Position numbers and translations under genes: made by a program. From Octopus vulgaris (lineage: Eukaryota), in assembly GCA_951406725.2 (NCBI GenBank), contig CATOCA020000001.1:7254001-7318000 (forward strand): a stretch of 64,000 bases of DNA, read 5' to 3'. This document shows positions 874 through 50,887 of this stretch, piece by piece. The number at the start of each line of letters is the position of its first letter. The stretch's first letter is position 1. A model generated the notes under the pieces. It saw only the letters and a list, made by a program, of their open reading frames with translations, had not been told where the DNA came from and ran no database searches.

Positions 874-951
874 ATGGCGGATTTCAGACAGAAAATTAGA
901 AATGGTGACGTCGAAGGAATTCAAAAATTAGTGAAAAAGGATCCAACAATA
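874..951 (+). CDS. ANK-RING-DD gene, first coding exon (MADFRQKIRNGDVEGIQKLVKKDPTI), N-terminal ankyrin cap
   Basis: ATG at 874 follows a pyrimidine tract plus AG (870-871), suggesting an upstream non-coding exon. GTAAGT donor at 952, phase 0, joins 9602 in frame. GDVEGIQKLV is ankyrin-like. Confidence 0.75.
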
Positions 952-1784
952 GTAAGTTGTTCTCTTTATTGCCTTCTCAAATTTGACTGTTTATTATTTT
1001 ATACACAATATGAAATGTTTTATACACAATATGAAAAGTAGCCACATATATTTGTCCATGATATTTCATTTCTTTCTTCACCTCTTTTCTCTAATCCTCA
1101 TCATCGACATTTTTATAAATATTTATCCAAACATTGAGGCATGGCAGAATTGATGGAATGTGAGTGAGAAAGAAATCCATCACACACTGCAATGGGGTGT
1201 TCTGGCGGGAAGTATTCAGTTCAAGAGATGAGAGACAGATGGAGCCGATAAATGGATGGTGACTTTTTAAAGAAGTCCTCTTGCCATACAAAGTTGAAGG
1301 TTTTACTGGTGTCAAGGGCTACACCATTTTTGATAGAATTTGTTACACATATGAAAACACTGGTGTGTCACATAGGAATCAAACCCCACTTTATAAAACT
1401 GTACTGGTGTTCATTGAATCCAGAAAGACACCTAAAGGGACAAAGGTGATTTTTTTAATGAAGTTTAATTTACTATTGAAATATTGGAAGTTAGAATGAC
1501 AGGATGGCAGTCAATAGATGGGATAGTGTCTGCAGGAATATAGAGCAGGGCTTCTCATAGTGGTCACTACCACCAATGTGTGGGGGCCGTGGGAACATGT
1601 TATATTAGTTTATGTATATATGGCACTCCAAGTGAGTTTGGCAGAATTAAAGGTTAAATAAGTAAAAAAAGCGAAGTGGTGATGCATCAAATATTTACTT
1701 ATTGTGAGGTGGTGTTGTGGTAAGTAGTCACCCACCAGGGTTGCGAGAAAGGTAAATAAATACCCCCTTCCCCCGAAAAATGGC

Positions 1785-2735
1785 TTCATTGAATAGGCCT
1801 GTACATAAGATCGGGACAGTTACAATTTGCCCTGTCATCTGTAGTGGAGGAATTTAAAGTAGCAAAATGTAATATTGTAATGATGTAGAGAGACTCTAAG
1901 GACGAGCTTGTCAGACATGCAGGTATTACCACAAGGTGTGGGTAACTAGCACCGCTGTCGCTCAGGCTGAAGGCATGCTGGAGATACGCGTCATATTTCG
2001 AGCTACATGTTGGGGTCACCAGGGACTTGGCTCTTCCTATTTCCAACAATAGAAGAAAGTAGACACCAAGGAGAGGCGGGTTATGACTCAGAAAGCATTG
2101 TGGTACCAGGAGGAAGATACAAGGAAATCAATAGCTGTGGAGTTGGTATCTCTGAGTGCATGAACTAAATAGGATCTCCCTAAGAGGAAGCTCTCATGGA
2201 CTGACCTATGGAGGCTGGAACCTTTGTACATCTCCTTCCTGCATGGAGCGGTGTATGACACACTCCCGATGCCAACAAACCTACACAGATAATGTTTGAG
2301 GGAAGACCAGCTGTGTAGACTTTGTAGGAAAGGGGTTCTCTGGCACACATCTTGGCAGGGTACTGAATAACACTTTCTCAAAGCAGATACAAATACTTGC
2401 TCACACCCTGGAGCAGTAAAAGTGTAAGAATCATCATCACCAAGGGAATATAACTGCCGCAATTAAGTTCGTGGAAGAGGGAGAGAAAGCAGTAAAGCTA
2501 GCAAAAGCAATACACATCTTGCTGCAAGGGTCTCAACAATGGGATATGAAGGTAGACTTAGGGAAGAGATTGCAGTTTCCCCAGGATATCCATACAACCC
2601 TGAGGCCTGATGTGGTCCTGTGGCCTGAAAAGGCTCAGAAAATTATCATAATTGAATGAACAGTCACGTGGGGAGCGGGTTGTAACGAGGCCCATGAACG
2701 GAAGTGTGACAGATATAAGAGCTTTCTGCAGGCTC
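1785..2735 (+). mobile_element. Decayed 3' part of a HERO-like non-LTR retrotransposon (CCHC knuckle plus restriction-like endonuclease)
   Basis: Translations SSVVEEFKVAK, AVYDTLP.PTNLH, C..C...G.LAHILAG and TLRPDVVLW...IIIE, with stops and frameshifts. Confidence 0.8.
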
Positions 2736-2844
2736 CATTCACTTTGGTGAATAGATAAAACACATCCTTACAGGTGTTATTAACTCGTATATATGTGTGT
2801 GTGTGTGTTTGTGTGTGTATGTGTATGCATGTGTATCTATGCAA

Positions 2845-3030
2845 GTGTGTGTCCCTAACTGCTAATTGATAATCGGTGTCGGTGTATTAGCATCCCTGTT
2901 ACTTTGGCCTGAAGCAAAAGAGATCTATAGGTTGGTGCTAATTAGACAGAAAAGGTACCACACATAAAAGACAAAATCGAGGAGGAGCCCCAGCATGGCC
3001 GCAGTCTCATAAGTGAAACAAGTAGAAGAG
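2845..3030 (+). mobile_element. 3' portion of the major octopus-type SINE
   Basis: ccccagcatggccgcagtc...gaaacaagta matches the 3' end of the copies at 15004 and 59309. Confidence 0.7.
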
Positions 3031-6000
3031 AGAAAGAAAAAGAAAGAGAAAAAAGAAGAGAAGAATAGAAAAATAGAAGAAAAAAAAGGAAAATTGAGAG
3101 AGAATTATAGAGAAGACAAAAAGAGAAACAAAACAGAGAAGGAGAGAGAGAAAAAGGAGAGAAAAGATAAAGAGAATGAGATTGAAAAAAGAAAACGAGA
3201 GGAAAAGAAAGGGAGAGAGAAAAGAAAAGGAGAGAGAGAGAGAGAAATGAGAGGAAGAAAGACAGAAGTGAAAGAGTGAGAGAGAGGAAAAAGGATAAAA
3301 AGAAAACGAGAGGAAGAAAAATGGAGAAAAAAAGAGAGAGAGCGAGAAAAGAAAGAAAGAGAAAAAAAACAAGAGGAAGAAAGAGAGAAATGAAAGAGTG
3401 AGAGAGAGGAAGAAGGATAAAAAGAAAACGAGAGGGAGAAAGGAGAAAAAAGCGTGAGAGCGAGAAATGAAAGAGAGAGAGAAAAAGAAACGAGACGAAG
3501 AAAGAGATAAATGAAAGAGTGAGAGAGAGGAAGAAGGAAAGAAAGAAAACGAGAGGGAGAAAGAGAGAGAAAAAGAAACGAGAGGAAGAAAGAAAGAAAT
3601 TAAAGAGTGAGAGAGAGGAAGAAGGATAAAAAGAAAACGAGAGGGAGAAAGAAGGAGAAAAAAGTGAGAGAGCGAGAAAAGAAACAGAGAGAGAATGAAA
3701 CGAGAGGAAGGAGAGAAATGAAAGAATGAGAGACAGGCAGAAGGATAAAAAGAAAACGAGAGGGAGAAAAAAGCGAGAGAGCGAGAAATGAAAGAGAGAG
3801 AGAAAAAGAAACGAGACGAAGAAAAGAGAGAAATGAAAGAGTGAGAGAGAGGAAGAAGGAAAGAAAGAAAACGAGAGGGAGAAAGAGAGAGAGAAAGAAA
3901 GAGAGGAAGAGAGAGAGAAATGAAAGAGAGAGAAAAAGAAAAGGAGAGGAAGGAAGAGAGAAATGAAGGAGTGAGAGAGAGGAAGAAGGAAAGAAAGAAA
4001 ACGAGAGGGAGAAAGAGAGAGAGAGAAAAAAAGGAGAGGAAGACAGAGAGAAATGAAAGAGTGAGAGAGTGGAAGATGAATAAAAAGAAAATGAATGGGA
4101 GAAAAGTTTGAAAGCGAGAAAGAGAGAGAGAGAAAAAGAAATGAGAGGAAGAAAGAGTGAGAGAAAGGAAGAAGGATAAAAAGAAAACGAGAGGGAGAAA
4201 GAAGGAGAAAAAAGTGAGAGAGCGAGAAAAGAAAGAGAGAGAAAAAGAAAAGGAGAGGAAGGAAGAGAGAAATGAAAGAGTGAGAGAGGAAGAGGGATAA
4301 AAAGAAAACGAGAGGGAGAAAGAAGGAGAAAAAAGTGAGAGAGCGAGAAAAGAGAGAGAAAAAGAAAACGAGAGAAAGGAAGAGAGAAATGAAAGAGTGA
4401 GAGAGAGGAAGAAGAATAAAAAGAAAATGAGAGTGAGAAAGAAGGAGAAAAAAGTGTGAGAGCGAAAAAAGTAAGAGAGAAAGAGGAAGGAAGAGAGAAA
4501 TGAAAGAGTGAGAGAGCGAGAGGAAGAAAGAGAGAAATGAAAGAGTGAGAAAGAAGAAGAAAAAAGAGAGAGAGCGAGAAAAGAAAGAGAGAAAAAAGAA
4601 ACGAGAGGAAGAGAGAGAAATGAAAGAGTGAGAGAGAGGAAGAAGGATAAAAAGAAAACGAGAGTGAGAAAGAAGGAAAAAAAGTGAGAGAGCGAGAAAA
4701 GAAAGAGAGAAAAAGAAAGGAGAGGAAGAAGAGAGAAATGAAAGAGTGAGACAGGAAGAATGATAAAAAGAAAACGAGAGGAAGAAAGAAGGAGAAAAAA
4801 GTGAGTGAGCGAGAAAGAGAGAGAGGAGAGAGTGAGAAAGAAACGAGAGGAAGAGAAATATAAATGAAAGAGTGAGAGTGAGGAAGAAGGATAAAAAGAA
4901 AACGAGAGGAGAAGAAAGGAGAAAAAAGTGAGGGGGCGAGAAAAGAAACAGAGAAAAAGAAAGAGAGAAATGAAAGAGTGAGAGAGAGGAAGAAGGATAA
5001 AAAGAAAATGAGAGGGAGAAAGAAGGAGAAAAAAGTGAGAGAGTGAGAAAAGAAAGAGAGAGAGAAAGAAAGGAGAGGAAGTAAGAGAGAAATGAATGAG
5101 AGAGAGAGAGGAAAAGGATAAAAAGAAAGTGAGAGTGAGAAAGAAGGAGAAAGAAGTGAGAGAGCGAGAAAGGAAGGAGAGAGAGAAAGAAAGGAGAGGA
5201 AGTAAGAGTGAAATGAATGAGAGAGAGAGAGGAAGAAGGATAAAAAGAAAACGAGGGGGAGAAAGAAGGAGAAAAAAGCGAGAGAGCGAGAAAGGAAGGA
5301 GAGAGAGAAAGAAAGGAGAGGAAGTAAGAGTGAAATGAATGAGAGAGAGAGAGAGGAAACAGGATAAAAAGAAAACGAGAGGGAGAAAGAAGGAGAAAAA
5401 AGCGAGAGAGCGAGAAAAGAAAGAGAGAGAAAAAGAAAGGAGAGGAAGAAAGAGAGAAATGAAAGAGTGAGAGAGAGGAAGAAGGATAGAGAGAAAACGA
5501 GAGAAAACGAGAGAAAAAAGTGAGAGAGCGAAAAAGGAAGGAGGGAGAGAAAGAAACGAGATGAAAGAGAGAGAGGGAGGAAGAAGGATAGAAAGAAAAC
5601 GAGAAAGAGAAAGAAGGAGAAAAAAGTGAGAGAGCGAGAAAAGAAAGGAGAGGGAAAACGAAACCAGAGGAATTAAGAAAGAAATGAAAGAGTGAGAGAG
5701 AGGAAGAAGGATAAAAAGAAAACGAGAGGGAGAAAGAAGGAGAAAAAAGCAAGAGAGAAAGAAAAGAAAGAGAGAAAGAAAAAGAAACGAGAGGAAGAAA
5801 GAGAGAAATGAAAGAGTAAGAGAGAGGAAGGATGATAAAAAGAAAACGAGAGGGAGAAAGAAGGAGAAAAAAGCGAGAGAGCGAGAAAAGAAAGAGAGAG
5901 AAAAAGAAACGAGAGGAAGAAAGAGAGAAATGAAAGAGTGAAAGAGAGGAAGAAGGATAAAAAGAAAACGAGAGGAAGAAAGAAGGAGAAAAAAGCCAGA

Positions 6001-9000
6001 GAGCAAGAAAAGAAAGAGAGAAAGAAAAAGAAACGAGAGGAAGAAAGAGAGAAATGAATGATTGAGAGAGAGGAAGAAGGATAAAAAGAAAACGAGAGGA
6101 AGAAAAAATGAGAAAAAACGAGATTGCAAGAAAAGAAAGAGAGAAAGAAAAAGAAATGAGAGGAAGAAAGAGAGAAATGAAAGAGTGAGAGAGAGGAAGA
6201 AGGATAAAAGGAAAACGAGAGGGAGAAAGAAGGAGAAAAAAGTGAAAGAGTGAGAAAAGAAAGAGAGAGAGAATAAGAAACGAGAGGAAGAAAGAGAGAA
6301 AGAAGGATTAAAAGGAGAGAAACGAGAGGTAGAAAGAGAGAAATGAAATCGTGAGATCGGGGAAAAAGGATAAAAAGAAAACGAGAGGGAAAAAGGAGAA
6401 AAACCTGAGTGAGCGAGAAAAGAAAGAGAATGAAAAAGAAACGAGAGGAAGAAAGGGAGAAATGAAAGAGTGAGAGGGTGGAAGAAGGAGTAAAAAGAAA
6501 ACGAGAGGGAGAAAGAGGGAGAAAATGCCAGAGAACAAGAAAAGAAAGAGAGAGAAAAAGAAATGAGAGGAGAAAGAGAAGAAGAATTGGAGAGAGAAAG
6601 AGAAATAGAAAGAGAGAAAGACAATGAGGAAATGAGAGAGAGAACAGACAAAGAAAACGAGCGAAAGAGAGAAAAGAAAAAGATAGAGAGATAGAGAGAG
6701 AAAGGAAACAGAGAGAGAAAGAGAGAAAAGGAAACGTTAAAGAGAGATAGGGAGAGGAAAACCAGAAAATAAAAAGAGAGAGAAAAGAAGCAGAGAGGGA
6801 GGAAGCGAGAATAGAAAAAGAGAAAGAGGGAGAGGAAGAGAGAAAGATGGAAGATGAGAGAAGAAAAAGGGACTGAGAGAAATAAAGAGAGAAAAAGGGA
6901 GAGAGAGAGAGGAAGAAAGAGGAAAAACAAACAATGAAAGAGAGAGAAATGAGAGAGAGAGGGATAAAAGAGACGTAAAAGGGATAAAGAGAATGAGAGA
7001 AAAGAAAGAGGAAGAAAGAGAGTAATGAAAGGGAGAAGGCAAGAGAGGAGAGAAAAGAAAAAAGTAAGTCCCTTAAAGGGAGAAAAGGAAAAGAGGGAAA
7101 GAAGAGAAAAAGGAAATGACAAACAGACAGAAAGAAAGAGAGGGAGAGGGAGGAAGGGAGAAAAGGAAAGTGAGAGAGCGAGAGGAAGAGAGAAGAGAAA
7201 AATTACCAGCGAAAGGAGATAACAGAGAGAAAGAGGAAGAGAGGAAAGAAAGAGAGAGATAAAAGGAAGCGAGTAAGGGAGAGAGAAAGAGGGAAAATAA
7301 AAGGAGAGAGATAAAGAAGAGAGAATAGAAAAAGAGAGAAAAGTAAAGCAGGAGAGAATGGTAAAAGAGTGGGGGAGAAGGAGATAAGAGAAAAAGAGAG
7401 GGGGAGAAAGAAAGAGGGAAAAGGGTAAAAGAAAGTGAGAGATATGAATAGGAGAGGGAGAGAAAGAGAAAAGAGACAGAGAGGGAAAGAGGGGAATATA
7501 GGAGAGAAAAGAGAGTGGGAAATAGAGAGAGAGAGGAAGAGAGATAGAAAAGCGAGGGAGAGAGGAAGTAATATAAGAAATGCGAGAGATGAAAAAGCGG
7601 AAGGAAAGAGAGAGAAAGAGAGAACAAAGAGTAAGAGACATTGAGAGAGAAAGACAGAAAAGAAAATGTGAGAGAGTGAGAGAAGAAGAAAGAGAGAGGA
7701 AAGGGAGAGAGAGAGAAAAGGAAAGAGAAAGGACATCAAAGAAATAGAGACAAGTAAAAGAGAAAGAGGAAGAAAGATAGAAAAGGCAAAGAGAAGCACA
7801 GAGAGAAAGAGAGAGAGAGGAAGGAAAGAGAGAGAAAGAGAGAACAAAGAGTTAGAGACATTGAGAGAGAAAGACAGAAAAGAAAATGTGAGAGAGTGAG
7901 AGAAGAAGAAAGAGAGAGGAAAGGCGGAGAGAGAGAAAAGGAAAAGAGAAAGGACATCAAAGAAAGAGAGACAAGTAAAAGAGAAAAGGAAGAAAGATAG
8001 AAAAGGCAAAGAGAAGCACAGGGAGAAAGAGAGAGAGAGGAAGGAAAGAGAGAGAAATAGAGAACAAAGAGTAAGAGACATTGAGAGAGAAAGACAGAAA
8101 AGAAAATGTGAGAGAGTGAGAGAAGAAGAAAGAGAGAGGAAAGGCGGAGAGAGAGAAAAGGAAAAGAGAAAGGACATCAAAGAAAGAGAGACAAGTAAAG
8201 AGAAAGAGGAAGAAAGATAGAAAAGGCAAAGAGAAGCACAGAGAGAAAGAGAGAGAGAGGAAGGAAAGAGAGAGAAATAGAGAACAAAGAGTAAGAGACA
8301 TTGAGAGAGAAAGACAGAAAAGAAAATGTGAGAGAGTGAGAGAAGAAGAAAGAGAGAGGAAAGGCGGAGAGAGAGAAAAGGAAAAGAGAAAGGACATCAA
8401 AGAAAGAGAGACAAGTAAAGGAGAAAGAGGGTGAAAGATAGAAAAGGCAAAGAGAAATGTTGGGTGAAAGAGAGAAAAGGAAAAGTGAAGGAGACAGAGA
8501 GAGAAAGATAGAAAAAAGGTAATAGAGAGAGAGATAAAGAAAGAGAAATAGAAAAAGAGAGAAAGAGAAAGAAAAGGAGAGAAAGAGAGAAAAGTAAAAT
8601 GGAAAAAGAGAGAAAAGAATGACAGAGGAGGAAAAAGAGGAAAAAGAGAGTGAGAAAGAAAGAGAGAAAAGAAAAAGGGAAAGAGAAAGAATGTAAGAAT
8701 AGAAAGAGAGGGAAATGAAAGAGGGAGAGATACGGAGAGAGAAAGAGAGAAATTGAAAAATAGAGAAAGAGAAAGATAAGAGAAAAATGAGAAAGAGAAA
8801 GAGTAAGGAAATGAGAGATAGAAAGAGAGGAAAGGAAAATGGGAAAAGAGAAAAGAAAGAGAGAGAGAGAGAGAGAGAGTAAAAGAGACATGGAGAGAGA
8901 AAGAAGGAGAGAAAGACAGAGAAGGAGAAAGAAAGAGAGAGAAAGTGAGAAAAGAAAGAGAAGGAAAGAAATGACAGAGGGAGATAGAGAGAGAAAGGAG

Positions 9001-9556
9001 AGAAAGAGGAAAGAAAACGAGAAAGAGAGTGAGAGACAAAGAGAGAACAGAGAGAGTAAAAGAGACACGGAGAGAGGAGAAAGAAAGAGAGAGAAGGAAA
9101 GGAGAAAGTGAGAAAAGAAAGAGAAGGATAGAAATGAAAGAGGGAGATAGAGAGAGAAAGAAGGAGAGAAAACGAGAAAGAGAGTGAGAGACAAAGACAG
9201 AAAAGAGAGAGAGAGAGTAAATGAGACACGGAGAGAGGAGAAAGAAAGAGAAAGTGAGAAAAGAAAGAGAAGGATAGAAATGAAAGAGGGAGATAGAGAG
9301 AGAAAGAATGAGAGAAAGAGGAAAGAAAACGAGAAAGAGAGTGAGAGACAAAGAGAGAAAAGAGAGAGAGAGTAAAAGAGACAGGGAGAGAGAAGAAAGA
9401 GAGAGAGAAAAAGGGGAAAGAGAGAGAAAGTGAGAAAAGAAAGAGAAGGATAGAAATGAAAGAGGGAGATAGAGAGAGAATGAAGTAGAGAAAGAGGAAA
9501 GAAAACGAGAAAGAGAGTGAGAGACAAAGCGAGAAAAGAGAGAGAGAGAGAGAGAA
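3025..9556. repeat. Purine-rich (GA) compound satellite, ~6.5 kb, with ~120-bp degenerate units and a 220-bp unit at ~7600-8450
   Basis: + strand is overwhelmingly G/A; ttgagagagaaagacagaaaagaaaatgtg recurs at 7641, 7861, 8081, 8301. Confidence 0.95.
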
Positions 9557-9601
9557 AATGGAATTTCTCTATTTCACATGTCCTCACTTTCTTCATTACA
9601 G

Positions 9602-9762
9602 ATTAATAAACCTATTGATGGATTGGGACGAACTCCTTTAATGATTGCCTGTGAAGTGGGCGCCGATAGAAGAATCATCGACATTTTGATAAAAGCTGGT
9701 CCGGAGTTAGGAGCGAAAGACAGATGGGGTGGTTGTACAGCTTTGCATTATGCTGTGTCGAG
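9602..9762 (+). CDS. ANK-RING-DD gene exon 2, ankyrin repeats (INKPIDGLGRTPLMIAC...GCTALHYAVS)
   Basis: ttacag acceptor, AG|gtaagt donor, phase 0-2; ankyrin motifs GRTPL and GCTALH. Confidence 0.92.
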
Positions 9763-9848
9763 GTAAGTTGAGAATCAAGTAAAATGTGCAGATGTGTTTT
9801 TGTTTGTAAATTTGTTGCAATTGCAGACACAGGTTCAATATCCAAAGG

Positions 9849-9935
9849 ATGTTGAGGAGGAGGAGGAGGAGGAGGATAATAATGATGATGAGGAGGAGGA
9901 GGAGGATGATGATGATGACGATGATGATGAGGATG

Positions 9936-9981
<46 letters not shown>

Positions 9982-10016
9982 GGATGAGGATGATGATGAG
10001 GATTATGGTGATGATG

Positions 10017-10059
<43 letters not shown>

Positions 10060-10085
10060 GGAGGAGGAGGAAGAGGAGGAGGATG

Positions 10086-10175
<90 letters not shown>

Positions 10176-10286
10176 ATGATGATGAGGATGATGATGATGA
10201 TGATGATGATGATGTTGATGATGATAATGCTGCTGCTGCTGCTGATGATGATCATGAGGAATAGGAGGAGGAAGAGGAGGAGGATG

Positions 10287-10320
<34 letters not shown>

Positions 10321-10808
10321 GAATGATGATGATGAGAATGATGATGAGGATGATGATGATGAGGATGATGATGATGATGATGATGATTATGATGATGATA
10401 ATGATGATGGTGATGATGATGATGTTGATTATGTTAATGAGGATGGTGATGATGATGATGATGATGATGATGATGAGGATGATGATGATAATGATGATGG
10501 TGATGATGATGATGATGAGAATGATGATGAGGATGATGATGATGAGGATGATGATGATGGTGATGATGATGATGATGATGAGGATGATGATGATGATGAT
10601 GAGAATGATGATGAGGATGATGATTATGATGATGATTATGATGATGATGATGATTATGATGATGAGGAGGAGGAGGAGGGGGAGGATTATGATGATGATG
10701 ATGATGAGGATGATGAGGAGGAGGAGGAGGAGGAGGAGGAGGAGGAGGAGGATGAGGATGAGGATGAGGATGATGATGATGATGAGGATGATGATGATGA
10801 GGAGGAGG

Positions 10809-10840
<32 letters not shown>

Positions 10841-11207
10841 AATGATGATGATGATGAGGAGGAGGATGAGGATGATGAGGATGATGTTGGTGATGATGAT
10901 GATGATGATGTTGAGGATGATGATGATGAGGATGAGGATGATGATGAGGAGGAGGAGGAGGAGGAGGAGGATAATAATGATGGGGAGGAGGAGGAGGAAG
11001 ATGATGATGACGATGATGATGATGATGATGAGGATGAGGATGATGAGGATGATGGTGATGATGATGGTGATGATGATGAAGAGGATGAGGATGATGATGA
11101 TGATGATGAGGAGGAGGAAGAGGATGACAGTGATGATGATGATGATGAGGAGGAGGAGGAGGATTATGATGTTGATGATGATGAGGATGATAATAATGAT
11201 GATGATG

Positions 11208-11241
<34 letters not shown>

Positions 11242-11895
11242 GGATGATGATGATGATGATGATGATGAGGAGGAGGAGGAGGAGGATGATGATGATGAGG
11301 ATGATGATGATGATGATGAGGATGATGAGGATGATGATGATGATGATGATGATATTGATGAGGTTGATGATGATGATGATGATGATGAGGATGATGATGA
11401 TGATGATTATGATGATGAGGATGATGATGATGATAACGATATTATGATGATATTATGATGATAATGATGATGTTGAAGCCGAGGATGATGATGATGAATA
11501 CGATGAGGTTGATGATGGTTATGATGTCTATGATGATGCCGATGGTGATGGTTATGATGATAGTTGCGATGAATGTTGATGAAGATGATGATGATAATGT
11601 TGATTATGTTAATGTTGGAGATTATGATGGTGATGGTGGTGATGAATGATGATGATGATGGTGATAATGGCAATGATGGTGATGATGATGATGGAGATGA
11701 TGATGAGGATGATGATGTAGGCTATGATGATAATGATGGCGATGATGATGATGGTGATCATGGCGATGATGGTGATGATGGTGATGATGTTAATGATGTA
11801 GGTGGTGGCAATGATGACGATGGCTATGATGTTGATGATGATGATTGCGATGACAATTGTGCAGGTGATAATGATGGTGATGATGATGATGATGT
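9849..11895. repeat. Imperfect (GAT)n/(GAG)n trinucleotide array in intron 2
   Basis: Directly visible. Confidence 0.97.
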
Positions 11896-11964
11896 TTCGT
11901 CTGAAAGCCAAAATAATTTCATATTTAATGTAAATTAGTCATTGTTTCTATCTTTTCCTCTCAG

Positions 11965-12118
11965 GAATCACCTTCAAGCTGTGGAGCTATTACTCTCTCG
12001 GGGCAGCAATGTCAACGAGAAGACCATCCACGGCAATACTCCTCTCCATTTGGCTGCAAGGTCATCTCCGGAATGGACAGATGGTGTGAAAGCTATAATG
12101 AAAGAGGAAGCTGTTGAG
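11965..12118 (+). CDS. ANK-RING-DD gene exon 3 (NHLQAVELLLSRGSNVNEKTIHGNTPLHLAA...AVE)
   Basis: ctctcag acceptor, gttagt donor, phase 2-0; canonical ankyrin consensus. Confidence 0.92.
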
Positions 12119-12527
12119 GTTAGTGACTATATATGTGTGTGTGCGTGTGTGTGTATGTCTGTGCGTATATACATATATATACAAATAAAATGTATGGATG
12201 TATATATAAAGTAAATTGTGGTGTGCATATGTTAGTGTTTCTCTTCATTCATATTATATTCTGAAATAATCCAAATCTTCCCCGAAAGGATTTTCTCTAA
12301 ATTTTCCTAACAATTTATCCGTCTTTTGGTAAATTACGAGGAAACAAAATCTACTCTTGCGAATTTTTACTCAACTCCTCTCCCGACCTTTGAGGAACAC
12401 TTATATAGGTATGTATATATAATCGTATATATACCGTATGTACACTGTATATATGCCTATAAGATATAAAAGATATATATATATACATATGTATATACAC
12501 ATATAAATAAGTATATATATACATATA

Positions 12528-12648
<121 letters not shown>

Positions 12649-12902
12649 AAAAAGGGTGAAATATAATTAATTTAATAAAATTGATAAATTTCACCTAGTA
12701 GATTTTTCGGTATGGAAAAGACCATATTTGGTGAGAAATATATTAATTATAATAAAGGGTTAATTGCAACAAATTGCTCAAAACCACATACCGAAAATAT
12801 TAGGAATAGCAGCCAAATAGATCCCTAGATATCTATATATATGTATATAGATATATATATATACATGAGTATATATATACATATACACACACACACACAC
12901 AT

Positions 12903-12974
<72 letters not shown>

Positions 12975-13170
12975 TTCCTGAGCCCCCTTATTTTTCCCCC
13001 ATAACTTTCTGGTGTTTCCGATTATGTTGAGAAAATAAAATCATTTCATGTGTTTCAAACCAATCCCAACTCCAGACATAATTGTTGATTAAGACATTGA
13101 AAGGGATGGATTTTCAGAAAATTTCACTAAGAAATATCTATTTTAAAAAGCTTCATGAGGAACATACAAC

Positions 13171-13265
<95 letters not shown>

Positions 13266-13706
13266 CACAGGAGTGGTTGTGTGGTTAGTAGCTTGCTTAC
13301 AAACCACATGGTACCATAAGAAATAGGTTTCCCAATTTTTTACACTCATCGATTTTTTTTTTTTTTTTTCATGTAACCCCACTTTGCCCATGGGTTGAGA
13401 ACCCTTCCAGCAAGGAAAATAGAACGTCCAAAAGCGCTCCTGATCCTCTGTGTGAGAAGCGGTTATGTTCAGATCACAACTACATTTATATATATGGGTA
13501 AAACACACACACACGCAAACATATACGTACATACACCTATTGTATACATGTTTTTGCACGCCTTTGCCCCTGCCACTGTCCCGCCACCACCTCCTACCTG
13601 AGTATTACCATCAATTGAAGCAAATTTGGCACCTGGAAGTAAGTTTTGTAACAGGAATAGAGAAGTCTACCTTCTCCCGCAGAGATGTGAAAGTCATACC
13701 TCTCCT

Positions 13707-13960
13707 GGTCAAACTAAAGCGTTTGACCCGGTCATTAAACAAACAAAATATAGTGTAATAGGTGTAAAACAAATTCCTCTAAACGAATATGAACCAAAAA
13801 ATGCGCGCTCGCGAAAGGGTGCGGGGGAGAGGCCTCGGAAAATTCACATCGTGAATGTTACGTGTCTGACCCGGACACAAAAACAAAAAAAAATAGTGTA
13901 ATAGGTGTAAAACAACTTGTTCTAAACGATTATCCAGAACATACACACACACACACACAC

Positions 13961-14036
<76 letters not shown>

Positions 14037-14247
14037 GAGAAATGTTTGGTTCAAGGCAAGACTGCATTGAACTGAATTTAAATAAGCAAGAAAGATATTA
14101 TCAAAGAAAAGGCCATAGGCCTCTCCTCCCCCCCTCCTTTCGCGAGCGCACATTTTTTTGGTCATATTCGTTTAGAGGAATTTGTTTTACACATATTACT
14201 ATTTTTTTGTTTGTTTTTATGACCGGGTCAAACGCTTTAGGTTGACC
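13707..14247. mobile_element. Non-autonomous DNA transposon (MITE), ~130-bp TIRs, 8-bp TSD CCTCTCCT (MULE- or Merlin-like)
   Basis: GGTCAAACTAAAGCGTTTGACCCGGTCAT at the left end mirrors ATGACCGGGTCAAACGCTTTAGGTTGACC at the right. CCTCTCCT at 13699-13706 and 14248-14255. Confidence 0.88.
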
Positions 14248-30495: not shown

Positions 30496-30512
30496 CATAT
30501 ATATATAATATG

Positions 30513-30544
<32 letters not shown>

Positions 30545-30614
30545 GATATATATATACTATATGTATAATATATGATATATATATATATATAAAAATATAT
30601 ACACACACAGACAC

Positions 30615-30657
<43 letters not shown>

Positions 30658-30702
30658 TATAAACGGCGGTGCATCACCATGGCCGCAGCTCTGAGCTGAA
30701 AC

Positions 30703-30759
<57 letters not shown>

Positions 30760-31079
30760 GTACAAATCATGCAAAGGCATTCACATCTATCCATCACTAT
30801 TGTTAACCGTTGCAGAATTCAAGCAACTCCCTGCTACCCGCATAAATAAAGGACACTTGAAATGTGGGACAATTTTTTCAATCAGTTGATGATTATCTGT
30901 GTATTGTAGTAATGTCTACTTTGGTGTGAGAAACCAGTGACCTCTCCACCTACTGGAATTTTCCATCCGACTAACAGTTTGAACAGTTTATGAACTATAA
31001 TGTGTTAGTGCACATACTCAATCGTGACACCAGTTCGTTCTTCTCTTTCGTCACATTCATCATCAAAGCATTTTTTTAT

Positions 31080-31400
31080 TAATTCATCATCATCACGTTT
31101 TTCTATGCTGGCAGACGTTGCACTATTTGACAGGAACTGGCCAGCTGAGGAGCTATCAGGGCTCCATGTCTGTTTCCATATGCTTTCTATGACTCAGTCC
31201 TTTGTCATCTGCTCTGTGAGGCCCAACGTCTAATGGTCCTTTATCACCACTTAATCACACGTCTTCCTGGGTCCACCCCTTCCGCACTTTCCTTCCACAA
31301 TCAAAGATCTGCACTTCTTGATGCAGCTGTCTTCATCCATATGCATTACATAATAATACCATCGCAGTCTTCTCTCTCGCACACAACATCCGATGCCCTA
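31080..31400 (-). mobile_element. Decayed RTE-type LINE 3' fragment
   Basis: catcatcatcacgtt..tctatgctggca tail shared with 36683; reverse strand encodes a G.RxGRP-like C-terminus. Confidence 0.5.
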
Positions 31401-32048
31401 TATATCCAGTTTTTCTTTCAAATCCACTTAATTATGGAAACATTATTGATCTGTTTAGATATGTCTGTGTGTTTTTGATTTAGTTGTTATTATGTTGTTG
31501 GTATTCTCTTTTCTGGTATAACTTACATTATTTGGGTTGTTATATTTATATATACAATACTCTTCCGTAAGCATTTCTCTTGCTATGGCCATTTGGCTTT
31601 ATCAAGCCAGTTGTAGAGATAGGTTCTTGTTGGTTTGTTGTCTTTCATTATTGTGACATTTCTGTCCTTATACGTTGTATATTTGACTTGATGTTATAAT
31701 AACTTTATATTGTGTTTTAATTGAATAGTTTGTGACATTTGTGATTGGCAAGTAAATATTTACTCATTAAATATCATTGTTAAGCAATAACGTTGACCAC
31801 TAATGTGCGTTTTGTTCAATATAATGATCATAATTTTTGTCTTAATGTAGAACGTAAAGTAAAACAAATGATAATGAAAAGTGGACTCAACTAAGAGATG
31901 ATGTAAGAAATCAACTCTGTGTGAATAGTTTAATCACTGGGGAAACAAACTATGTGTAAATGTAGTTGAACTGTTGTGTAATTTGGGGCATCTTTAGTAT
32001 ATGTTTGTGTAATCTTTAACTCATCATTTTATATTTCATCATTTGTAG

Positions 32049-32226
32049 TTCTGCAAGGATCTGAAACTGGGAAACGAAGAAAGGTGCTCTGGTGTGGTAG
32101 TTGCCTGCTACCTAGCCCACCACGGGGCCAACTTTTACTGTAAAAACAAAATTGGCAGAACACCATTGGACCTAATAGAAAAGGAAAATTTAAAAAAGAC
32201 GTTAAATATGTTATTCCACCAACGCA
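32049..32226 (+). CDS. ANK-RING-DD gene exon 7, last Mind-bomb-like ankyrin repeat (VACYLAHHGANFYCKNKIGRTPLDL); apparent 1-nt deletion near 3' end
   Basis: ttgtag acceptor, gtaagt donor at 32227. Resembles the final Mind bomb ankyrin (IACFLA..GADL..RN.KG.SPLDL). Ends in phase 1 whereas exon 8 needs phase 2. Confidence 0.88.
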
Positions 32227-36012: not shown

Positions 36013-36064
<52 letters not shown>

Positions 36065-37055: not shown

Positions 37056-37059
37056 TTTA

Positions 37060-44198: not shown

Positions 44199-46981
44199 GT
44201 GAGTATAAAATAAGAGTACCTAATTGATTTATATAAGTTTCAGACTGAAAAAAAGATCTCATTCCTTCTATCCTATTGAAAGGTTAGCTTTAAAGTGATT
44301 CTTTAAAGTGACTCAGAAAATATCCACCGATGTCAGCAGTTTTGATAATAATAGATAGAGGACATATTTGAGAGTACAGGACGGCATCATTAAATGGTCC
44401 TTTCTCACAGCTTTCTGTGTATATTGGGAGACATGTAGCCTCTCCACTGTCCAGTGTCCATCTAGTAGTGTACCAGGCATCACCCACATATAGTGGCTTA
44501 TTCTATGTAGGTGAATAACGTAGAGGTTGGTGAGTCCTGCCTTCTTTCCTACTAACTAAATCTCTTCTCATTTCTAGCTTTATCATAACACCGATCCATT
44601 ATTGATTTCTCTCTAAATCATGGCATTGACACCGTGAAAGAAATGCGTATCATTCTTTTTTTGTTTGCTTTAACTTTTGAAATTTTATTATCAAGGGGAA
44701 ACTATTGATATATTGCTTCATACTGAACCTGATCTTATTCACTTGTTCCAGAAAAATTTCTTAAAATGTTAGCAGATTAAATTTTGATAATTTTTACCCA
44801 ATGAGAAAACAGGATTTGGAAGCAAGCATTTTGAGCGGGATCACAAAACAGCGACAACAGATGACGACATTACGACGACAAAAAATTCAACGACGGAAGT
44901 TTTAATAAGTTTTAATCAATTAACTTATGTGAAATATCATAACAGGCATGAGAAAAATTAGAAAAACGAGAAAAAAACAATATAAACTAAATGGGAATGT
45001 TGAATTACGAAAAAATAACGAAAGTTTGCGACGCAGTTTAGGAGTTTGTAACAGAAAATTCTGATTTAAGCATCCCATTTGAACCTATATATATTTTTTT
45101 TATTTTTTTGAGTTTTGAGAAAATGTTTGCAAATGTGAGTCCTACTCACGGGAATTCCTATGATTAAGCAAACTTATTTCAAAACATTTATTAATCCCTT
45201 ACCTTCATACATCCTAAAATTTATACTCTTTTTCAATTTTTTTGTTTTTCAAATCAGAGTTTGAAATACAGAGTTTGTCCGAATTATTTGCCTAAATCCC
45301 AGCAACGGACCACCCTTCACTGCATGATCATTCCATTTAATGAGTTTATGGGAGGAAAAATATTGAAAAACATCAATACATGTCATAGTAGCAAGGAAAC
45401 GAGGAAGATGTCAGGTGGTCAGGAGATGTGCTAAAAACAACAGCTAAATCGCCATTAACAGACAAGATGGTGAAGATGCCGACGACCGCTTTGTTCAAAG
45501 TCTCCCTTGACCTCAAGTGGCCTGAACTCTTTACATGAACACCACCCTGTACTTAACTACATGTCCCCCTACATGGCCTTGCTTTTTGCTTTTGAGCCAA
45601 AAAATTAACTTAACTTAACTCACACAGATTTTTACTTCATAATTTTATAATTCCCATGTATAGAACACAAATTTGCAATCAGTTTCTGAAAATCCCCCAA
45701 AATACAGTAAGTTATTTGGGATTATGTGGGGATAATAAAACCAGAATTCCTGCCAATTTCCGTAATCCCTGTGCCAAATAAACTCGCAGAGACACGAGTC
45801 AACCTTAGAAGGGGAAGTTTCAGAGTGACAATAACAGACGTGTAAAAGCAAGAATAAAAGGTAACAGACGAGTAAGGAGGCTACACAACACCTTCGCTTG
45901 ATACCATGGAAACGGGTGCCAATGCATTTGTGGATTTCGAGTGACTAAAGTACAATACAAAATTTGTAGATTTAAAAGCTGTTAAGTTTTTATTTATTAA
46001 ATTATGGGGAAAGTGAATTTCATTTCCATAATTAGCATACAACTCTACATCAATACATGAAATTTGAAATCAATCGGAAAAAAATTGAAGGAATTGAAAA
46101 GTGAAAGCCAAACAGATGGACAAAATATAATACGTTGAGGTCATTTTTGTATCTTGTCTTTTCGTATTTTAATTAGTTCAGATGTACCTAGTTTTTTCTG
46201 AGAGTTCAATCCAGAAAATCAATCAAGATATTTCTAAATCGTGATATGCTTTAGTCATGATCATAGGATGTTATCAAACAGTAAGAATGAGATTCCATTT
46301 ATGGGTCTTTAGAGTAACATTACTCAATAGAATGTATAGTTCAGAAATATGGGAGTCTCTTCATGTTCACATCTCTGGTACTACAAACATATGATCGGAA
46401 TGTCGCAAGAACAAATTAAAGGAGAGATTCCTAAAACAAAACCAATGGAGTAGAAGACCTAGTGGTAGACCAAAAACGAAATAGTTGGATCATATTCATA
46501 GTCTTAGTTGTTTGCGCTTAGGAAACCAACCAAAACGTCTTACGATGGTTGCATCTGATGGGACCCTATGGAGGAGGCCTCTACCCCCAAACCCTCCCAG
46601 GAATATTGACCAGTGGAATGGACAGATGGATCAAATGGTTTGACTGTTGGTCGTCTATGTTGATTTTCTAGGTTCTCATATACTTTTGCCCCCACAAACA
46701 CTTCTCCTGCCATCTCTTTACCATATTCTCAAATGTAATTTACAATTAATTCTCTTTAAAATCTTCACAATTTTCATCCTGTACTTCAACCTCTTTGTTA
46801 TTATTTAATCAGCGTTCTTAGAAATAGAGAACGATGTCTTATATATTTTATTTTTCTTAACTACTTCTCATTCCTCTATGGACATAATGCCTTTGTTGTA
46901 TTGATAACAAACTACAGTAAAGATCTTTTATAATATTGTTAATGTTGTTGCATTTATTTCTAACTGTTGTATGTTTTGCAG

Positions 46982-47166
46982 GGAGGGAATTAGGAATTGA
47001 ATCTGTTCAATTGGAAATCATCAGATATGACTATCCTTATAACACCGTGGAACAGAGCTTCCAGATGCTGCGGAGATGGTTTACACGTTGTGATCCAGAG
47101 AAACGAACACACAAAACACTCAGAGAAGCTCTTGAGAAAGGTGAGTGTTTCGATGCACTCGAATGA
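46982..47166 (+). CDS. Death domain 1, second exon (GRELGIESVQLEIIRYDYP...QSFQMLRRW...TLREALEKGECFDALE*); internal donor after 47140
   Basis: ttttgcag acceptor; DD motifs ELG, EQ.FQML..W, L.EAL. TGA at 47164-47166; AAAG|GTGAGT at 47140/47141. Confidence 0.88.
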
Positions 47167-47645
47167 GAATCACTTCCATTCTACCATTTCAGATCTTTTC
47201 ACTGCCCATAATGTAAGGATGAAGAGTTACCTGTAGTAGAGTGAAGTTTGTGCAAGTGTATCCTCTTTGAGGACACCTGTTATCATTTTCTGTTCCGCCT
47301 GTGTAGAAGTAATCTTCGCTCACCTTTATAAACACTGCTCTATTAAGATGTCTTAAAGCATTTCAAGCATCAGTTGACATTCTGGTGAACAGTGATGCAG
47401 GAAGTTGAAAACTAATCATTACCTGCAGCAATGTTTAAGAAGGAGATCAGGTGTGAGTGTTTATACAACTTAAAGGGGTGTGTGTAATGTGTTAATGGTT
47501 AGATCATGGATAACAAAACTGGTTGCCATTGGAATTAAGCAAAGATGAGAATAATGTTGGTAAGAGAAGGGCAGAAGTGAGGGCACAATTTCACGTCATA
47601 TGTTTAGTGCAGATATAAGAAAGGAAAGACAAACCTAATAAAAGA

Positions 47646-48675
47646 ATAATAATGAAATTATTGTATACAGTGCTCAGGTGCACCACAACTTGTCAGAGAG
47701 TGCGTATGAAGTACATGCTGTAATGGACAAATGTCTGGAAAGCTGACAATGTATGTGTCAGACACATGCTTGTGTGTGTATGGAGGGGAGAAAATCAGAT
47801 GTAGTGTTGGCTAATCTCAGAAAGCATGGAAGTTTTGAAGGATGCAGTGCTCTAGCAACTAACAACTGATTCCGGCAGTTTGTTCCATGCTTCAGCAACT
47901 CTCAGCGTGAAAAAATGTTTCCTAAATTCATAGGAACTGTGCTATTTTCTGACTTTGTAAATATGTCCACGGGTGTTAGACGGGTGGAGTTTGAAAAGGT
48001 TCTCAGAGTTATTGTTTGTAAGATGGTTAATAATTTTATGGGTGTCTGCCAAGTCAGCTGCCAGACGTCGGAGTTTCAATATATGCATGCCCAGGAAGGT
48101 AAGGCGTTCAGAATATAGCAAATGCCTGATGGAGGGTATTCTTTTGGTTGCACGTCGCTGAACGGCTTCCAGACCATTAATATCCTGGGCAAGATAGGGG
48201 TTCCAGACCGGTGATGCAAATTCCAGATGCGGTCTTACCATAGCTATATAAAGCCGCAGATAGGTAGCCGGAGAGCAGCTCACAAAGGACTTGGTGAGTG
48301 ATGCCTCAGACAATTTTAGCAATGTGTTTTGTCCAACGCAAATCACTATCGACAATAACACTCAGGTCACGTTCACACGAAGACTTTTTGAGATTAGTGT
48401 TGTGGAGGGAATAAGTGGACGCTGGATTTCTCCTCCCAAAATGCATAGTGGTACATTTGTCCACAGCCAGCTTGAGTTGCCAGTCCATGATCCATTGCTG
48501 CATTGTGTTTAATTCTGCTTGCAATAGAGATCTATAGTATACAGGATCTGACCTCTTTATTTCGAGGTACGGCTTGATGTCAACTGCATATTTCAGCACT
48601 GTGGCATTCTTTAAGTTGGCATCTATGGCATTAACATACGCAACAAATAAAAAGGGGGCCAAGAACAGATCAACA
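47646..48675 (-). mobile_element. 5'-truncated CR1-clade LINE inserted only in duplicate copy 2
   Basis: LYIAMVRPHLEFASPVWNPY...LEAVQRRATK, decayed YADD (KYAVD), TRGH; empty site aataaaagattggtgttatc at ~40290. Confidence 0.9.
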
Positions 48676-48942
48676 GGTGTTATCAAGTGATAATTAAATG
48701 AAATAATGACACAGTTGTTAGATTATGTCGAATGTCTCAAAAGATAAAGGAAATTTTGGAAGGCAGTGTAAATATTTAACTATTACATGGTAATCCTGTT
48801 CAAACTATAAACATTCTAACCAAACTTATTGTCTTCAACAGTTGATCATCTATGAAAAGCAGCCCTGATATAAAATATAGATTATTAATAAAGATAGAGA
48901 AATTTTTTTTAAATGTTTGAAACTTGGAAATATTCATTTCAG

Positions 48943-48993
48943 TGAATCGAACATTTGAAGACAAAGAAATCAAGACACTGGCTGAACCTGTTG
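48943..48993 (+). CDS. Linker exon L2' (VNRTFEDKEIKTLAEPV), duplicate of 40568-40618
   Basis: Two substitutions versus L2; splice sites intact, phase 1-1. Confidence 0.75.
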
Positions 48994-50887
48994 GTGAGTA
49001 TAAAATAACAGCACTTGATTGATTTCTGTAAGGTTTATCCCCTGCTGAACTATTTTGATATCAGAATGATAAAGATCAGCTTCCATTCTTACCTGTCAAT
49101 GGGAAGTTTTAGCATTAAACTAATCATATTAAACATATCGATACTATTGACATTTCATAAAGTATCCAATCAGGTTAGCACGGTTGGTGAAATGGATAAA
49201 TTAGAAGCAAAATAGATTTCAGGTTCTCTTTTGGAACAGTCAAATAATATATGTTGTGGTTTAACAGGTGAAGTAATGACAAAGGTTTTGTTTGTTTTAT
49301 ATTTTTGAAATGTTTACTGACAAGATATTCTTGTTATTTTAGCTGATGTCTCGCATAATCTGACAGACTTACAATGAAATGCGTTCCAAATATGACCACA
49401 CTCTTATTTTTCACTGATAATAAATCTATCATTGCATCCAGTAAACATTGTCTTTATTCAAGTGGAAGACGTTGGTTTGCTGCTCAGAAAACCGTTGTCT
49501 CTTTCCCTTTCTTCAAACTTCATAGAGGCTGTATGATACAATACAATCAAATACATTCAAAGAGACATCGGACGGGTTGAAAGGAGAACGGATAGTGAAC
49601 ACCTTAGATAAAAGCTCCTTAAGAACCCTTCTTACGATACTATGATTGTTTTTGCCGATGCTAAGAGGGGGATATTATAAGGCACTAAAGATGAAGAGAA
49701 CACGAATATACGGGACATATACAATGACCCCAAACGAAGTCAACCTTATCTCCTCATGTTTGGTTTGAAATGTCCAATGAAACCAGTAATCAAATATTTC
49801 AGCTTTGCGATTTCAGCAAGAAACAAGTATAAAGCTTAGTGAAGAAGGCAAGAACGGAGATTGCAACGGGAGGTGATTGTGTACCATAGAACATGTACAA
49901 ATGTTGTGCCCAGGTGTTATAAGCATTAATTACTATTTAGAGAGTTGTGGGATAAAGGTGAACTGATTAATGAATGGTGCAAGACAAAAGGATTTTATTC
50001 ATCAAAGTAAGTTAATGCAGAACTAAGTGACCAATTGGAGCCAATTTCAATCTTGAATGGCAAGATTTACAAGGCTGTACTTGCTAAGAGATCAGCTATA
50101 TATCTACAAAATAATGATTAAGTAAGATGAAATATCCAGAAGGCTGGCATCTCCAGAACCCCTGTATGTAGAACATGGATTTTCAGTCTGGGACTCGATA
50201 GAAAACACAAAGGGAAATTAAGGAATTTGAATGTGTTATGGCTTAAGCTGGTTAATGCTTTTGGCCCTCTATCAAGCAGTAAATATCTCCAATCAAGTGT
50301 TGATGGATGCAATGAACTTTAAATATGAGAGAAGAATAAGGATTTTATGAGGGGCTGCTATAACAATTTCAATATGTGTTTCATGAGAGAAAATTTCACA
50401 AAAGACTTGCATCATTTTGAAATTGGAATTGTTGTAGTTTGCAAAATATCAGTCATTTTGTTTGTGCCTCTTATGGAGATGTTCCTTTGATCAGCAGATT
50501 GATCAAGAGAGACCGGTTCGAGTGAAATAACCTAAGAAGGAAGACATCCATGGATGATATAAAAGTACCATGTAAGATATTTGGCACAGATATAAGAAAC
50601 AAAAGATAAAACTAAGGAAACAACAGTTTCTTCAATTGATAAATAAACGAGATAATTGCTACGTTACTTGATAATGAATGTAGGATTTCTTAATAGAGAG
50701 AAGTCTAGGAAGGTTAGTCTGTTTGGTTATCGACGTAAATATTGAGCTATTCCATGGGACCACGAAAGAAGTATAAAAATAATGGCCATTAATGATAAGA
50801 ATGACTTACATTTATAAAATAAAGACCAATTAACAGAGACAGAGAAATTATACTATGACGTGTAAAATTTGGAAATATTTATTTCAG

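Follow-up and report, generated by a model that had tools for sequence, protein, structure and literature searches.

The window considered here is a stretch of 64,000 nucleotides from Octopus vulgaris (GenBank assembly GCA_951406725.2, contig CATOCA020000001.1, positions 7,254,001 to 7,318,000 of the forward strand). It has a G+C content of 36% and zero N. The + strand carries a gene for ankyrin (ANK) repeats, a RING domain (zf-C3HC4_3), short linker exons and a C-terminal death domain (DD). There are two death-domain modules, DD1 and DD2. Our subject is the C-terminal exon of the first one, DD1-C, which breaks off at a joint with repeat sequence and contains a candidate 5' splice site shortly before its stop codon. 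Exons were placed by tblastn of family proteins, which are named Octopus in their sources, together with a check for AG/GT boundaries. A slash in a sequence marks a splice site or a joint. The exons from the RING onward are these.

35062-35204, + strand: RING exon (zf-C3HC4_3), 90-94% identical to family proteins by tblastn.
36527-36577, + strand: linker exon L1, 51 nucleotides, phase 1-1, 100% identical to P0003 and P0005, with AG and G/GTGAGT flanks.
40568-40618, + strand: linker exon L2, 51 nucleotides, within L2 repeat unit A, found by tblastn, donor G/GTGAGT.
43133-43198, + strand: linker exon L3, found by tblastn, donor G/GTGAGT.
44127-44198, + strand: exon DD1-N, found by tblastn, donor G/GTGAGT.
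46982-47166, + strand: exon DD1-C, truncated, stop codon included, found by tblastn.
48943-48993, + strand: linker exon L2', in L2 repeat unit B, donor G/GTGAGT.
50888-50959, + strand: exon DD2-N, found by tblastn, donor G/GTGAGT; contigs of runs X22 and X24 join 50959 to 55092.
55092-55297, + strand: terminal exon DD2-C with its own stop codon, found by tblastn; AATAAA follows at 55530 and contigs reach 55451-55473.

All exons after the RING-exon donor are of phase 1 at both ends, and L1, L2, L3, DD1-N, L2' and DD2-N share the donor G/GTGAGT. The Pfam cut-offs are 22.6 bits for Death (PF00531) and 27 bits for zf-C3HC4_3 (PF13920). DD1-C by itself scores 23.8 bits and the RING exon 29.7 bits, each above its cut-off, and DD2-C scores 35 bits. 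Whole family proteins score 35-52 bits with Death over profile positions 2-82 of 86. A Pfam scan of full-length relatives at an E limit of 0.001 finds ANK, RING-type and Death models, with no kinase, ZU5 or UPA.

This gene is one of many ANK-RING-linker-death-domain genes in a large, recently amplified family. A first look at the genome gives 64 candidates for the DD-C exon, 242 for the DD-N region and 186 for the tail of the L2 repeat unit. C31, the 12-Mb contig on which the window lies, is dense with family copies at 93-99% identity. Copies are also found on C30, C7, C10 and C5, and C29 has an older, more diverged set. In a paralog on C1 (G000:C1:216747962-216753275) the RING-exon block (window 34713-36145) adjoins the L3 block (43090 onward), so this paralog is without L1 and L2, which matches P0006 and P0007. 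Among the hits listed, the literature shows no paper on an ANK-RING-DD expansion in cephalopods; this covers titles and abstract openings only and is not proof of absence.

L2 and L2' each lie within a copy of a repeat unit.

39820-41600, + strand: L2 repeat unit A, the part that recurs at 47166-49596; it holds L2.
47166-49596, + strand: L2 repeat unit B, 5'-truncated, with a 1,030-bp insert at 47646-48675; it holds L2'.

The initial annotation had claimed that the sequence from 47166 copies 39820 onward, and it does, at 95-96% identity. Positions 39820-40298 match 47166-47645 at 95.2%, 40301-40922 match 48676-49301 at 95.9%, and 41305-41600 match 49300-49596 at 96.0%. Unit A carries a 380-bp insert (40921-41303) that has no counterpart in unit B. 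An inverted copy of this ~380-bp element, at 79%, lies downstream of DD2 (59308-59703), and the element is also present in unit 1 of the related locus c2.08M. The 1,030-bp insert of unit B is not in unit A and is common to c2.08M (98.25% over 47166-48765). Of its long - strand open reading frames one was scanned, and that one has no Pfam match. RNA-like contigs cover the insert at high depth with 90-95% likeness, and therefore it is a multi-copy element.

These units are not peculiar to the window. The genome holds 33 or more copies of the L2-unit tail (41350-41600), which are 93-99% identical. The units are ~2.1-2.3 kb long and there are one to three tandem copies per locus, for example at C31:1995398/1997485/1999627 and C31:6762197/6760111/6757970. 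The number of units per locus matches proteins with one or two VNRTFE..LAEPV repeats.

The joint between DD1-C and unit B is where the stop codon of DD1 lies. The exon reads ...GCACTCGAATG/AGAATCACTTCC across it.

47164-47166, + strand: TGA stop codon across the breakpoint 47165/47166, with TG from a Cys codon and A as the first base of the 39820 copy.

There are 39 other genomic matches to the exon, and at the place of the junction codon they have TGT (33), TGC (1), CGT (2) or AGT (1), with 2 unaligned. A Cys codon is thus present in 34 of the 39. Not one of the 39 aligns past 47165, and all paralogs that are aligned at the junction codon stay open for several codons further. The closest paralog (C1:216.75 Mb) goes on with TCTACCTCAGACGATGTAA, which encodes CLPQTM and a stop. 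When 100 bases around the joint, with the joint in the middle, are used as a query, the window's own locus is the sole match that crosses it. Among the 11 other matches to this query, 3 end at 47165 and 8 begin at 47166, one of the latter being the window's own 39820. No microhomology was found at 47165/47166. The joint has the form end of unit to start of unit, from DD1-C to the 39820-equivalent. The stop codon was made at the breakpoint, just as had been claimed, since the paralogs carry a Cys codon with further codons after it and the joint is unique in the genome. What does not hold is the earlier idea of the lost tail. It was said to resemble HLSLDTN, the tail of DD2, but the tail of the DD1 type is CLPQTM-like as in the C1 paralog.

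The same annotation had read the 95% match as a tandem duplication of a whole death-domain module. This is not what the comparison of the two modules gives. The DD-C exons of DD1 and DD2 are 74% identical in nucleotides and 66% in amino acids, and with the upstream intron the identity is 68-74%. Divergence along the supposed duplicate is uneven. It is 95-96% identical over the first 1.8 kb, falls to ~70% directly after 41600/49596, and is 74% in the exons. Each death domain has closer relatives elsewhere. The DD2-N region has five more copies at 98-99% identity, four on C31 (2.08, 4.12, 7.38 and 10.1 Mb) and one on C7 (1.73 Mb), and the copies extend over a long 3' block. From 49750 as far as 58.7 kb or beyond, the window is 97-98.4% identical to all five.

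49750-60537, + strand: 3' block common to at least 5 other loci (C31 2.08, 4.12, 7.38 and 10.1 Mb; C7 1.73 Mb) at 97-98.4%.

The only close relative of DD1 is the C1 locus (89% identity for the exon, 93-95% for 43090-47165). DD1 and DD2 are members of separate subfamilies and not recent twins. The 95% "duplication" is simply two L2 units, since L2 units are 93-99% alike across the family.

The DD1-C exon differs from the C1 paralog at 16 of 60 residues, and its 89% compares with 94-95% in the flanking intron. The stretch IRYDYPYN agrees with P0002 and the C29 copies and not with C1. This higher divergence of the exon could be a conversion patch or altered selection. The intron between DD2-N and DD2-C holds a mariner-type transposase remnant (52243-53311, - strand; HTH_48 49.9 bits, Transposase_1 64.8 bits). 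It sits in the block that is common to the other DD2-type loci at 97-98%.

It is worth considering which of the two death domains is native to the locus. Two sister loci are informative here. The locus c10.1M is colinear with the window from the first kilobase to the end at 92-97%. The locus c2.08M is colinear over 32700-41187 at 96-97.6%, with 98-100% in the bins from 35 to 38.5 kb, and again over 47166-60537 at 98.2-98.4%, the 1,030-bp insert included. Both have the order L1-L2-L2-DD2N-DD2C and both lack 41601-47165.

41601-47165, + strand: block unique to the window locus, with L3, DD1-N and truncated DD1-C; absent from the colinear c2.08M and c10.1M.

DD2 is native and DD1 is added, since the sister loci pass from the L2 units straight to DD2. 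In c2.08M and c10.1M the second L2 unit keeps sequence like 39349/39554-39819 before the 39820-equivalent, so the state in the window is the derived one. About 360-600 bp of recipient sequence between the two L2 units was lost.

The block has more than one affinity. Positions 41601-42964 are 96-99% identical to Z-type loci, and 43090-47165 have the C1 paralog as their best match. We took as informative those sites where c2.08M and the Z-type locus z6.71M differ. These sites favour c2.08M between 34.5 and 37 kb (10:0 in one bin and 14:1 in another), give a mixed signal between 37 and 41 kb, and favour the Z type between 41.0 and 41.5 kb (0:17). The left edge of the added block is therefore diffuse and lies within homologous L2-unit sequence, while its right edge is blunt and non-homologous. 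No remnant of a DD1-type tail or 3' untranslated region was found elsewhere in the genome at 90% or more. Based on these comparisons the most likely history is that the L3/DD1-N/DD1-C block was copied in between two L2 repeat units.

Three other ideas about this arrangement were considered and rejected. Position 47166 is not a natural start of the L2 unit, as the unit extends 266-471 nucleotides further upstream in c10.1M and c2.08M. Loss of the block in c2.08M by recombination between units A and B cannot restore the part that is like 39554-39819. Had a DD2 block gone into the final exon of a DD1 gene, a tail or 3' untranslated remnant should be left, and none was found at 90% or more.

The truncated exon contains what looks like a good donor.

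47141-47146, + strand: candidate 5' splice site GTGAGT, preceded by AAG (AAG/GTGAGT, 47138-47146); consensus, predicted only.
46982-47140, + strand: the internal form of DD1-C that use of the donor would give, 159 nucleotides, phase 1-1, encoding death-domain helices 2b-5.

AAG/GTGAGT agrees with 9 of 9 consensus positions (MAG/GTRAGT). The G at 47140 is in codon phase 1, the site is 25 nucleotides upstream of the stop, and its core is the same as in the other donors of the family. At the same place DD2 has GAAATCGAGT. It had been claimed that DD1 has a consensus phase-1 donor where DD2 has none, and that 47140 joins in frame to L2' and DD2; both points are confirmed. The joins 47140>48943, 47140>50888 and 47140>55092 are all open and in frame. 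The L2' acceptor has 1 difference from the L2 acceptor in the 25 upstream bases. Skipping the whole block (L2>L2'>DD2) is likewise in frame. AATAAA occurs at 47637, 48646 and 48887, and the one at 47637 is also present in unit A, where it is ordinary intron.

The donor had further been suggested to be novel. In the 39 paralogs the dinucleotide at the place of the GT is CT 34 times, TC twice, AT once, a gap once and GT once. The single paralog with GT is the C1 locus, which has AAT/GTAAGT. The GT is therefore older than the joint within the small clade of DD1 and C1. It is the G at -1, which makes a Gly codon GGT out of Cys TGT, that is peculiar to the window copy.

Putting these observations together, we argue that DD1-C ends at a unique blunt joint with an L2 unit that makes its TGA, that a patch from a DD1-type paralog was most likely copied between two L2 units, and that AAG/GTGAGT is predicted to splice in frame to L2' and DD2. 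We give this reading as a whole a probability of roughly 0.6. The patch would have been copied by a repair or template-switch event that was homologous on one side and end-joined on the other, to judge from the end product. Such an event fits a block that has a homologous edge on one side, a non-homologous edge on the other and no remaining tail. The join lies 20 nucleotides before the stop codon of the donor type, and the last ~six codons and the 3' untranslated region are gone. The exon, a terminal one in its donor type, keeps its acceptor and lies 1.8 kb upstream of an intact L2'. With an acceptor and a consensus donor 159 nucleotides apart, exon definition would include DD1-C. The predicted product would run ...L2-L3-DD1 (minus helix 6)-L2'-DD2. 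A read-through form that ends at the TGA would require a cryptic poly(A) site.

Other observations bear on what the gene can make. Upstream of the RING the gene has seven exons.

874-951, + strand: E1, ankyrin-repeat coding; tblastn and AG/GT boundaries.
9602-9762, + strand: E2, ankyrin-repeat coding; tblastn and AG/GT boundaries.
11965-12118, + strand: E3, ankyrin-repeat coding; tblastn and AG/GT boundaries.
15974-16128, + strand: E4, ankyrin-repeat coding; tblastn and AG/GT boundaries.
19885-19921, + strand: E5, ankyrin-repeat coding; tblastn and AG/GT boundaries.
24025-24234, + strand: E6, ankyrin-repeat coding; tblastn and AG/GT boundaries.
32049-32226, + strand: E7, ankyrin-repeat coding; tblastn and AG/GT boundaries.
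32216-32217, + strand: CC where z6.71M has CCC, a shortfall of 1 nucleotide in the comparison with that locus.

E1-E7 (874..32226) have an open translation of 324 codons. They sum to 973 nucleotides and end in phase 1, whereas phase 2 is what the RING exon requires. Along the canonical exon chain a stop is met inside the RING exon. A weak donor, GTATTC, 4 nucleotides beyond the end of E7, would restore the frame. The earlier lengths of 513 amino acids for a form with one death domain and 614 for a form with two can be reproduced arithmetically, but only if this 1-nucleotide clash between E7 and the RING exon is ignored. The clash is either a pseudogene or a consensus error. Single-base homopolymer indels also occur in the RING exons of other copies: c10.1M is one base short in a C run, and z6.71M has one base more in an A run. 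According to the passages of PMC10700109 on its chromosome-level assembly, that assembly rests on ONT (Oxford Nanopore) R9.4.1 reads, with linked short reads for polishing. Consensus errors in multi-copy sequence are plausible should the window belong to it.

The introns of the window contain long simple arrays. There is a 6.5-kb purine-rich (GA) array at 3027-9557, and (ATG)n/(GAT)n arrays lie at 9882-11894 (2.0 kb) and 16770-19424 (2.7 kb). An (AGAA)n array is found at the end of the window (63595-64000).

The protein would be affected as well. In intact relatives the Pfam Death profile extends to ...CFDALECL, at position 82 of 86, and the C, F, D, A and L of CFDAL are invariant in 9 of 9 aligned family proteins. 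An AlphaFold model of P0008, which is of the DD2 type, has helices at 47-67, 72-81, 86-100, 108-117 and 121-130. It is a helical bundle with a pLDDT (predicted local distance difference test) of 80-88 in the death-domain region, made from a 9-sequence alignment. The 47140 splice point maps right after the fourth helix of this model, which is helix 5 of the domain, and the TGA falls half-way along the last helix. On this model a spliced DD1 would be without helix 6 and CFDAL, and a complete six-helix bundle would not be retained. The stop-codon form keeps FDALE and would lose the second half of helix 6.

The points against the reading begin with the transcript data, which do not show the donor in use. 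Contigs of runs X22, X23, X24 and X17, whose RNA nature is assumed, were placed on 36450-56400. The data considered comprise 15 of the 76 joints and 24 of the 1148 loose ends, and many of the contigs are from transposons. Parts of the window that lack contig cover were not used as evidence. One contig each of X22 and X24 has the GT..AG joint 50959>55092, which is DD2-N to DD2-C. These DD2 contigs are 97-98% like the window and could derive from any one of 6 or more near-identical copies. Of the 15 joints considered among the 76, none starts at 47140. The sole DD1-C contig listed is from X22, a run of a second organism. It has 829 bases and aligns to 46987-47165 with 17 mismatches in 179, then ends its alignment exactly at 47165 and goes on for 244 more bases. 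Depth arithmetic suggests that it also holds L3 and DD1-N. It looks like an ordinary terminal-exon transcript of a DD1-type paralog. Contig open reading frames across the junction were sought by a homology search with DD1-C, which gave no candidates.

Two public records, P0001 and P0012, do join ...EALEK to G-RELGIKQ, which is 47140>55092. It must be noted that the chain of these models omits E6, E7, the RING, L1-L3, DD1-N, L2' and DD2-N, and that it passes through a cryptic exon at 39263-39335. The first exon of P0001, at 7580 (MREMKKRKERERKR...), is inside the GA-rich array. The 47140 junction in these models looks like a predictor's bypass of the frameshift and cannot count as separate proof of splicing. 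In the method passages of PMC10700109 the gene models come from EVidenceModeler, which combined ab initio, protein and transcript evidence, and were then updated with PASA; these passages do not tell transcript-based models apart. As support for use of the donor P0001 and P0012 are weak.

The origin of the patch is a further point against the reading. A donor locus at 98% or more for 43090-47165 was not found, and the flanks are 1.5-2% from c2.08M. Conversion is evident in this family and makes identity an unreliable clock.

One can imagine simpler scenarios, and the simplest is that 39820-47165 was duplicated in tandem as 47166-55273. The death domains would then be twins, and the new donor a regulated switch between forms of 513 and 614 amino acids. 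The joint does have the end-to-start form, 39820-41600 and 47166-49596 do match at 95%, the joins are in frame, both lengths come out arithmetically and the -1 G is unique to the window copy. However, the identity drops from 95% to ~70% beyond 41600/49596 and is 74% in the DD-C exons, L2 units are equally similar across the whole family, DD1 and DD2 have their relatives elsewhere, and the sister loci do not have the DD1 block. A regulated switch must further contend with the frame clash between E7 and the RING, the loss of CFDAL and the lack of a 47140 joint among the 15 of 76 considered. We consider duplication with a switch very improbable. The main rival on the origin is a deletion that fused a DD1-type gene to a DD2-type gene lying head to tail with it, by removing what lay between the final codons of DD1-C and a point mid-way in an L2 unit of the second gene. 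It does better but is still unlikely. It would account for a blunt, non-homologous joint with no tail remnant. The family is densely clustered on C31, with more copies at least 64 kb downstream, and in a related species L1-L2-L3-DD1 is found as the architecture of a normal gene (P0003, P0005). The difficulty is that both flanks (32700-41187 and 47166-60537) are colinear with c2.08M at an equal 98-99% identity. Since both flanks match one sister locus equally well, we rate a fusion lower than copying of a patch. That locus also has two adjacent L2 units. Such a match is to be expected if the flanks were a single gene, and if two genes had been fused it would be a coincidence.

The joint could also be a chimeric assembly of two paralogous loci or haplotypes in a repetitive cluster. 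There are many copies on C31 at 95-99% identity, three copies have single-base homopolymer indels in coding exons, and R9.4.1 reads would underlie the sequence if it belongs to the assembly in PMC10700109. Yet misjoins in repeats switch within shared sequence, and this joint is between exon and intron sequence without homology. The window has no N or gap, and one sister locus has the two flanks of the block in matching order and orientation. We regard an artefact as highly doubtful. A further competitor accepts the structure and leaves the donor idle. L3 and DD1 would be skipped, or DD1-C would be terminal with a cryptic poly(A) site, or the gene would be a silent pseudogene. Skipping is in frame and gives the ordinary product of the sister genes (L2>L2'>DD2), and AATAAA is available at 47637, 48646 and 48887. 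In X24 the DD1-N bin has zero depth while a DD2 contig is present, there is a frameshift upstream, and in the C1 paralog GT[AG]AGT sits unused in a terminal exon. Set against this are a full-consensus donor, intact sites in L3 and DD1-N, and the presence of the 47637 AATAAA in the normal intron of unit A; the RNA data are thin and not locus-specific. An idle donor is possible, though we think it holds a clear minority of the probability.

The copied patch with a predicted donor remains our preferred reading, but it does not follow that the product is useful. The window locus is probably a young non-adaptive or decaying chimera and not a regulated switch. We infer this because CFDAL would be lost if the donor were spliced and because there is a frameshift before the RING exon. 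A bolder extension would be domain accretion. A captured terminal death-domain exon would have been made internal by a pre-adapted phase-1 GT, sharpened by a lineage-specific T>G at -1, giving a translated E3 ligase with tandem death domains. DD1 would be without helix 6 by design and might, say, act as a decoy or offer a changed surface for oligomerisation, the stop form would be a second isoform, and the frame clash would be an assembly error. We think this improbable as a whole.

Even so the locus is a datable-looking example of how a modular immune-type gene family is reshuffled. The linker and death-domain pieces are phase 1-1 and lie in repeat units of ~2.2 kb, so a patch from a paralog can drop in and stay in frame. 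A terminal exon can turn internal given a chance GT in the right phase. There is also a practical warning. The public gene models of this region look strange: they leave exons out, use a cryptic one as a bridge and start within a GA repeat. The family is so repetitive that neither RNA mapping nor the base-level consensus can be relied on. Should the tandem form exist and be translated, its two death domains would make it an unusual protein.

The proteins resemble several known ones in part. A profile search of the PDB with P0008 matches the death domain of Ankyrin-3 (4o6x, E 2.4e-8) and that of RIPK1 (E 3.3e-7). The search with the whole family alignment is dominated by ankyrin repeats, and the death-domain match comes from P0008 alone. 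By sequence the closest solved relatives are thus the death domains of ankyrin-G/B/R and RIPK1, and the P0008 model is likewise a helical bundle. Unlike in those proteins, the octopus death domain is at the C-terminus of an ANK and RING protein with no kinase, ZU5 or UPA. In having ankyrin repeats followed by a C-terminal zf-C3HC4_3 RING the family is like the E3 ligases MIB1 and MIB2. Unlike them it carries a death domain. MIB1/MIB2-like is what the sources call these proteins, and this name is a best-hit label.

The processes that we propose are of kinds already known, namely phase 1-1 shuffling, chimeras from aberrant repair and exon internalisation. The anatomy of the locus is well supported, the splicing is a prediction and the function is doubtful. 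Chimeric genes arise by conversion-like or template-switch repair in which one end is homologous and the other is not, as in synthesis-dependent strand annealing (SDSA) with end joining, or in fork stalling and template switching (FoSTeS) and microhomology-mediated break-induced replication (MMBIR). The window resembles these in its diffuse homologous left edge, its blunt right edge and the loss of ~360-600 bp of recipient sequence. It differs in that the mechanism is read from the end product and no donor at 98% or more is at hand. Read-through and fusion transcripts are known in which a cryptic 5' splice site turns a terminal exon into an internal one. Here too a former last exon has a consensus donor before its stop and in-frame acceptors downstream. 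Unlike in those cases its use is predicted, and the GT predates the event in C1 with only the -1 G being new. Shuffling of symmetrical phase 1-1 modules is a general principle. It differs from the classical form here in being among paralogs of one young family, with one piece a former terminal exon whose end is missing. The likeness is nevertheless close, as L1, L2, L3, DD-N and the 159-nucleotide piece of DD1-C all begin and end in phase 1. Because all of them are phase 1-1, any combination of the window's modules is in frame.

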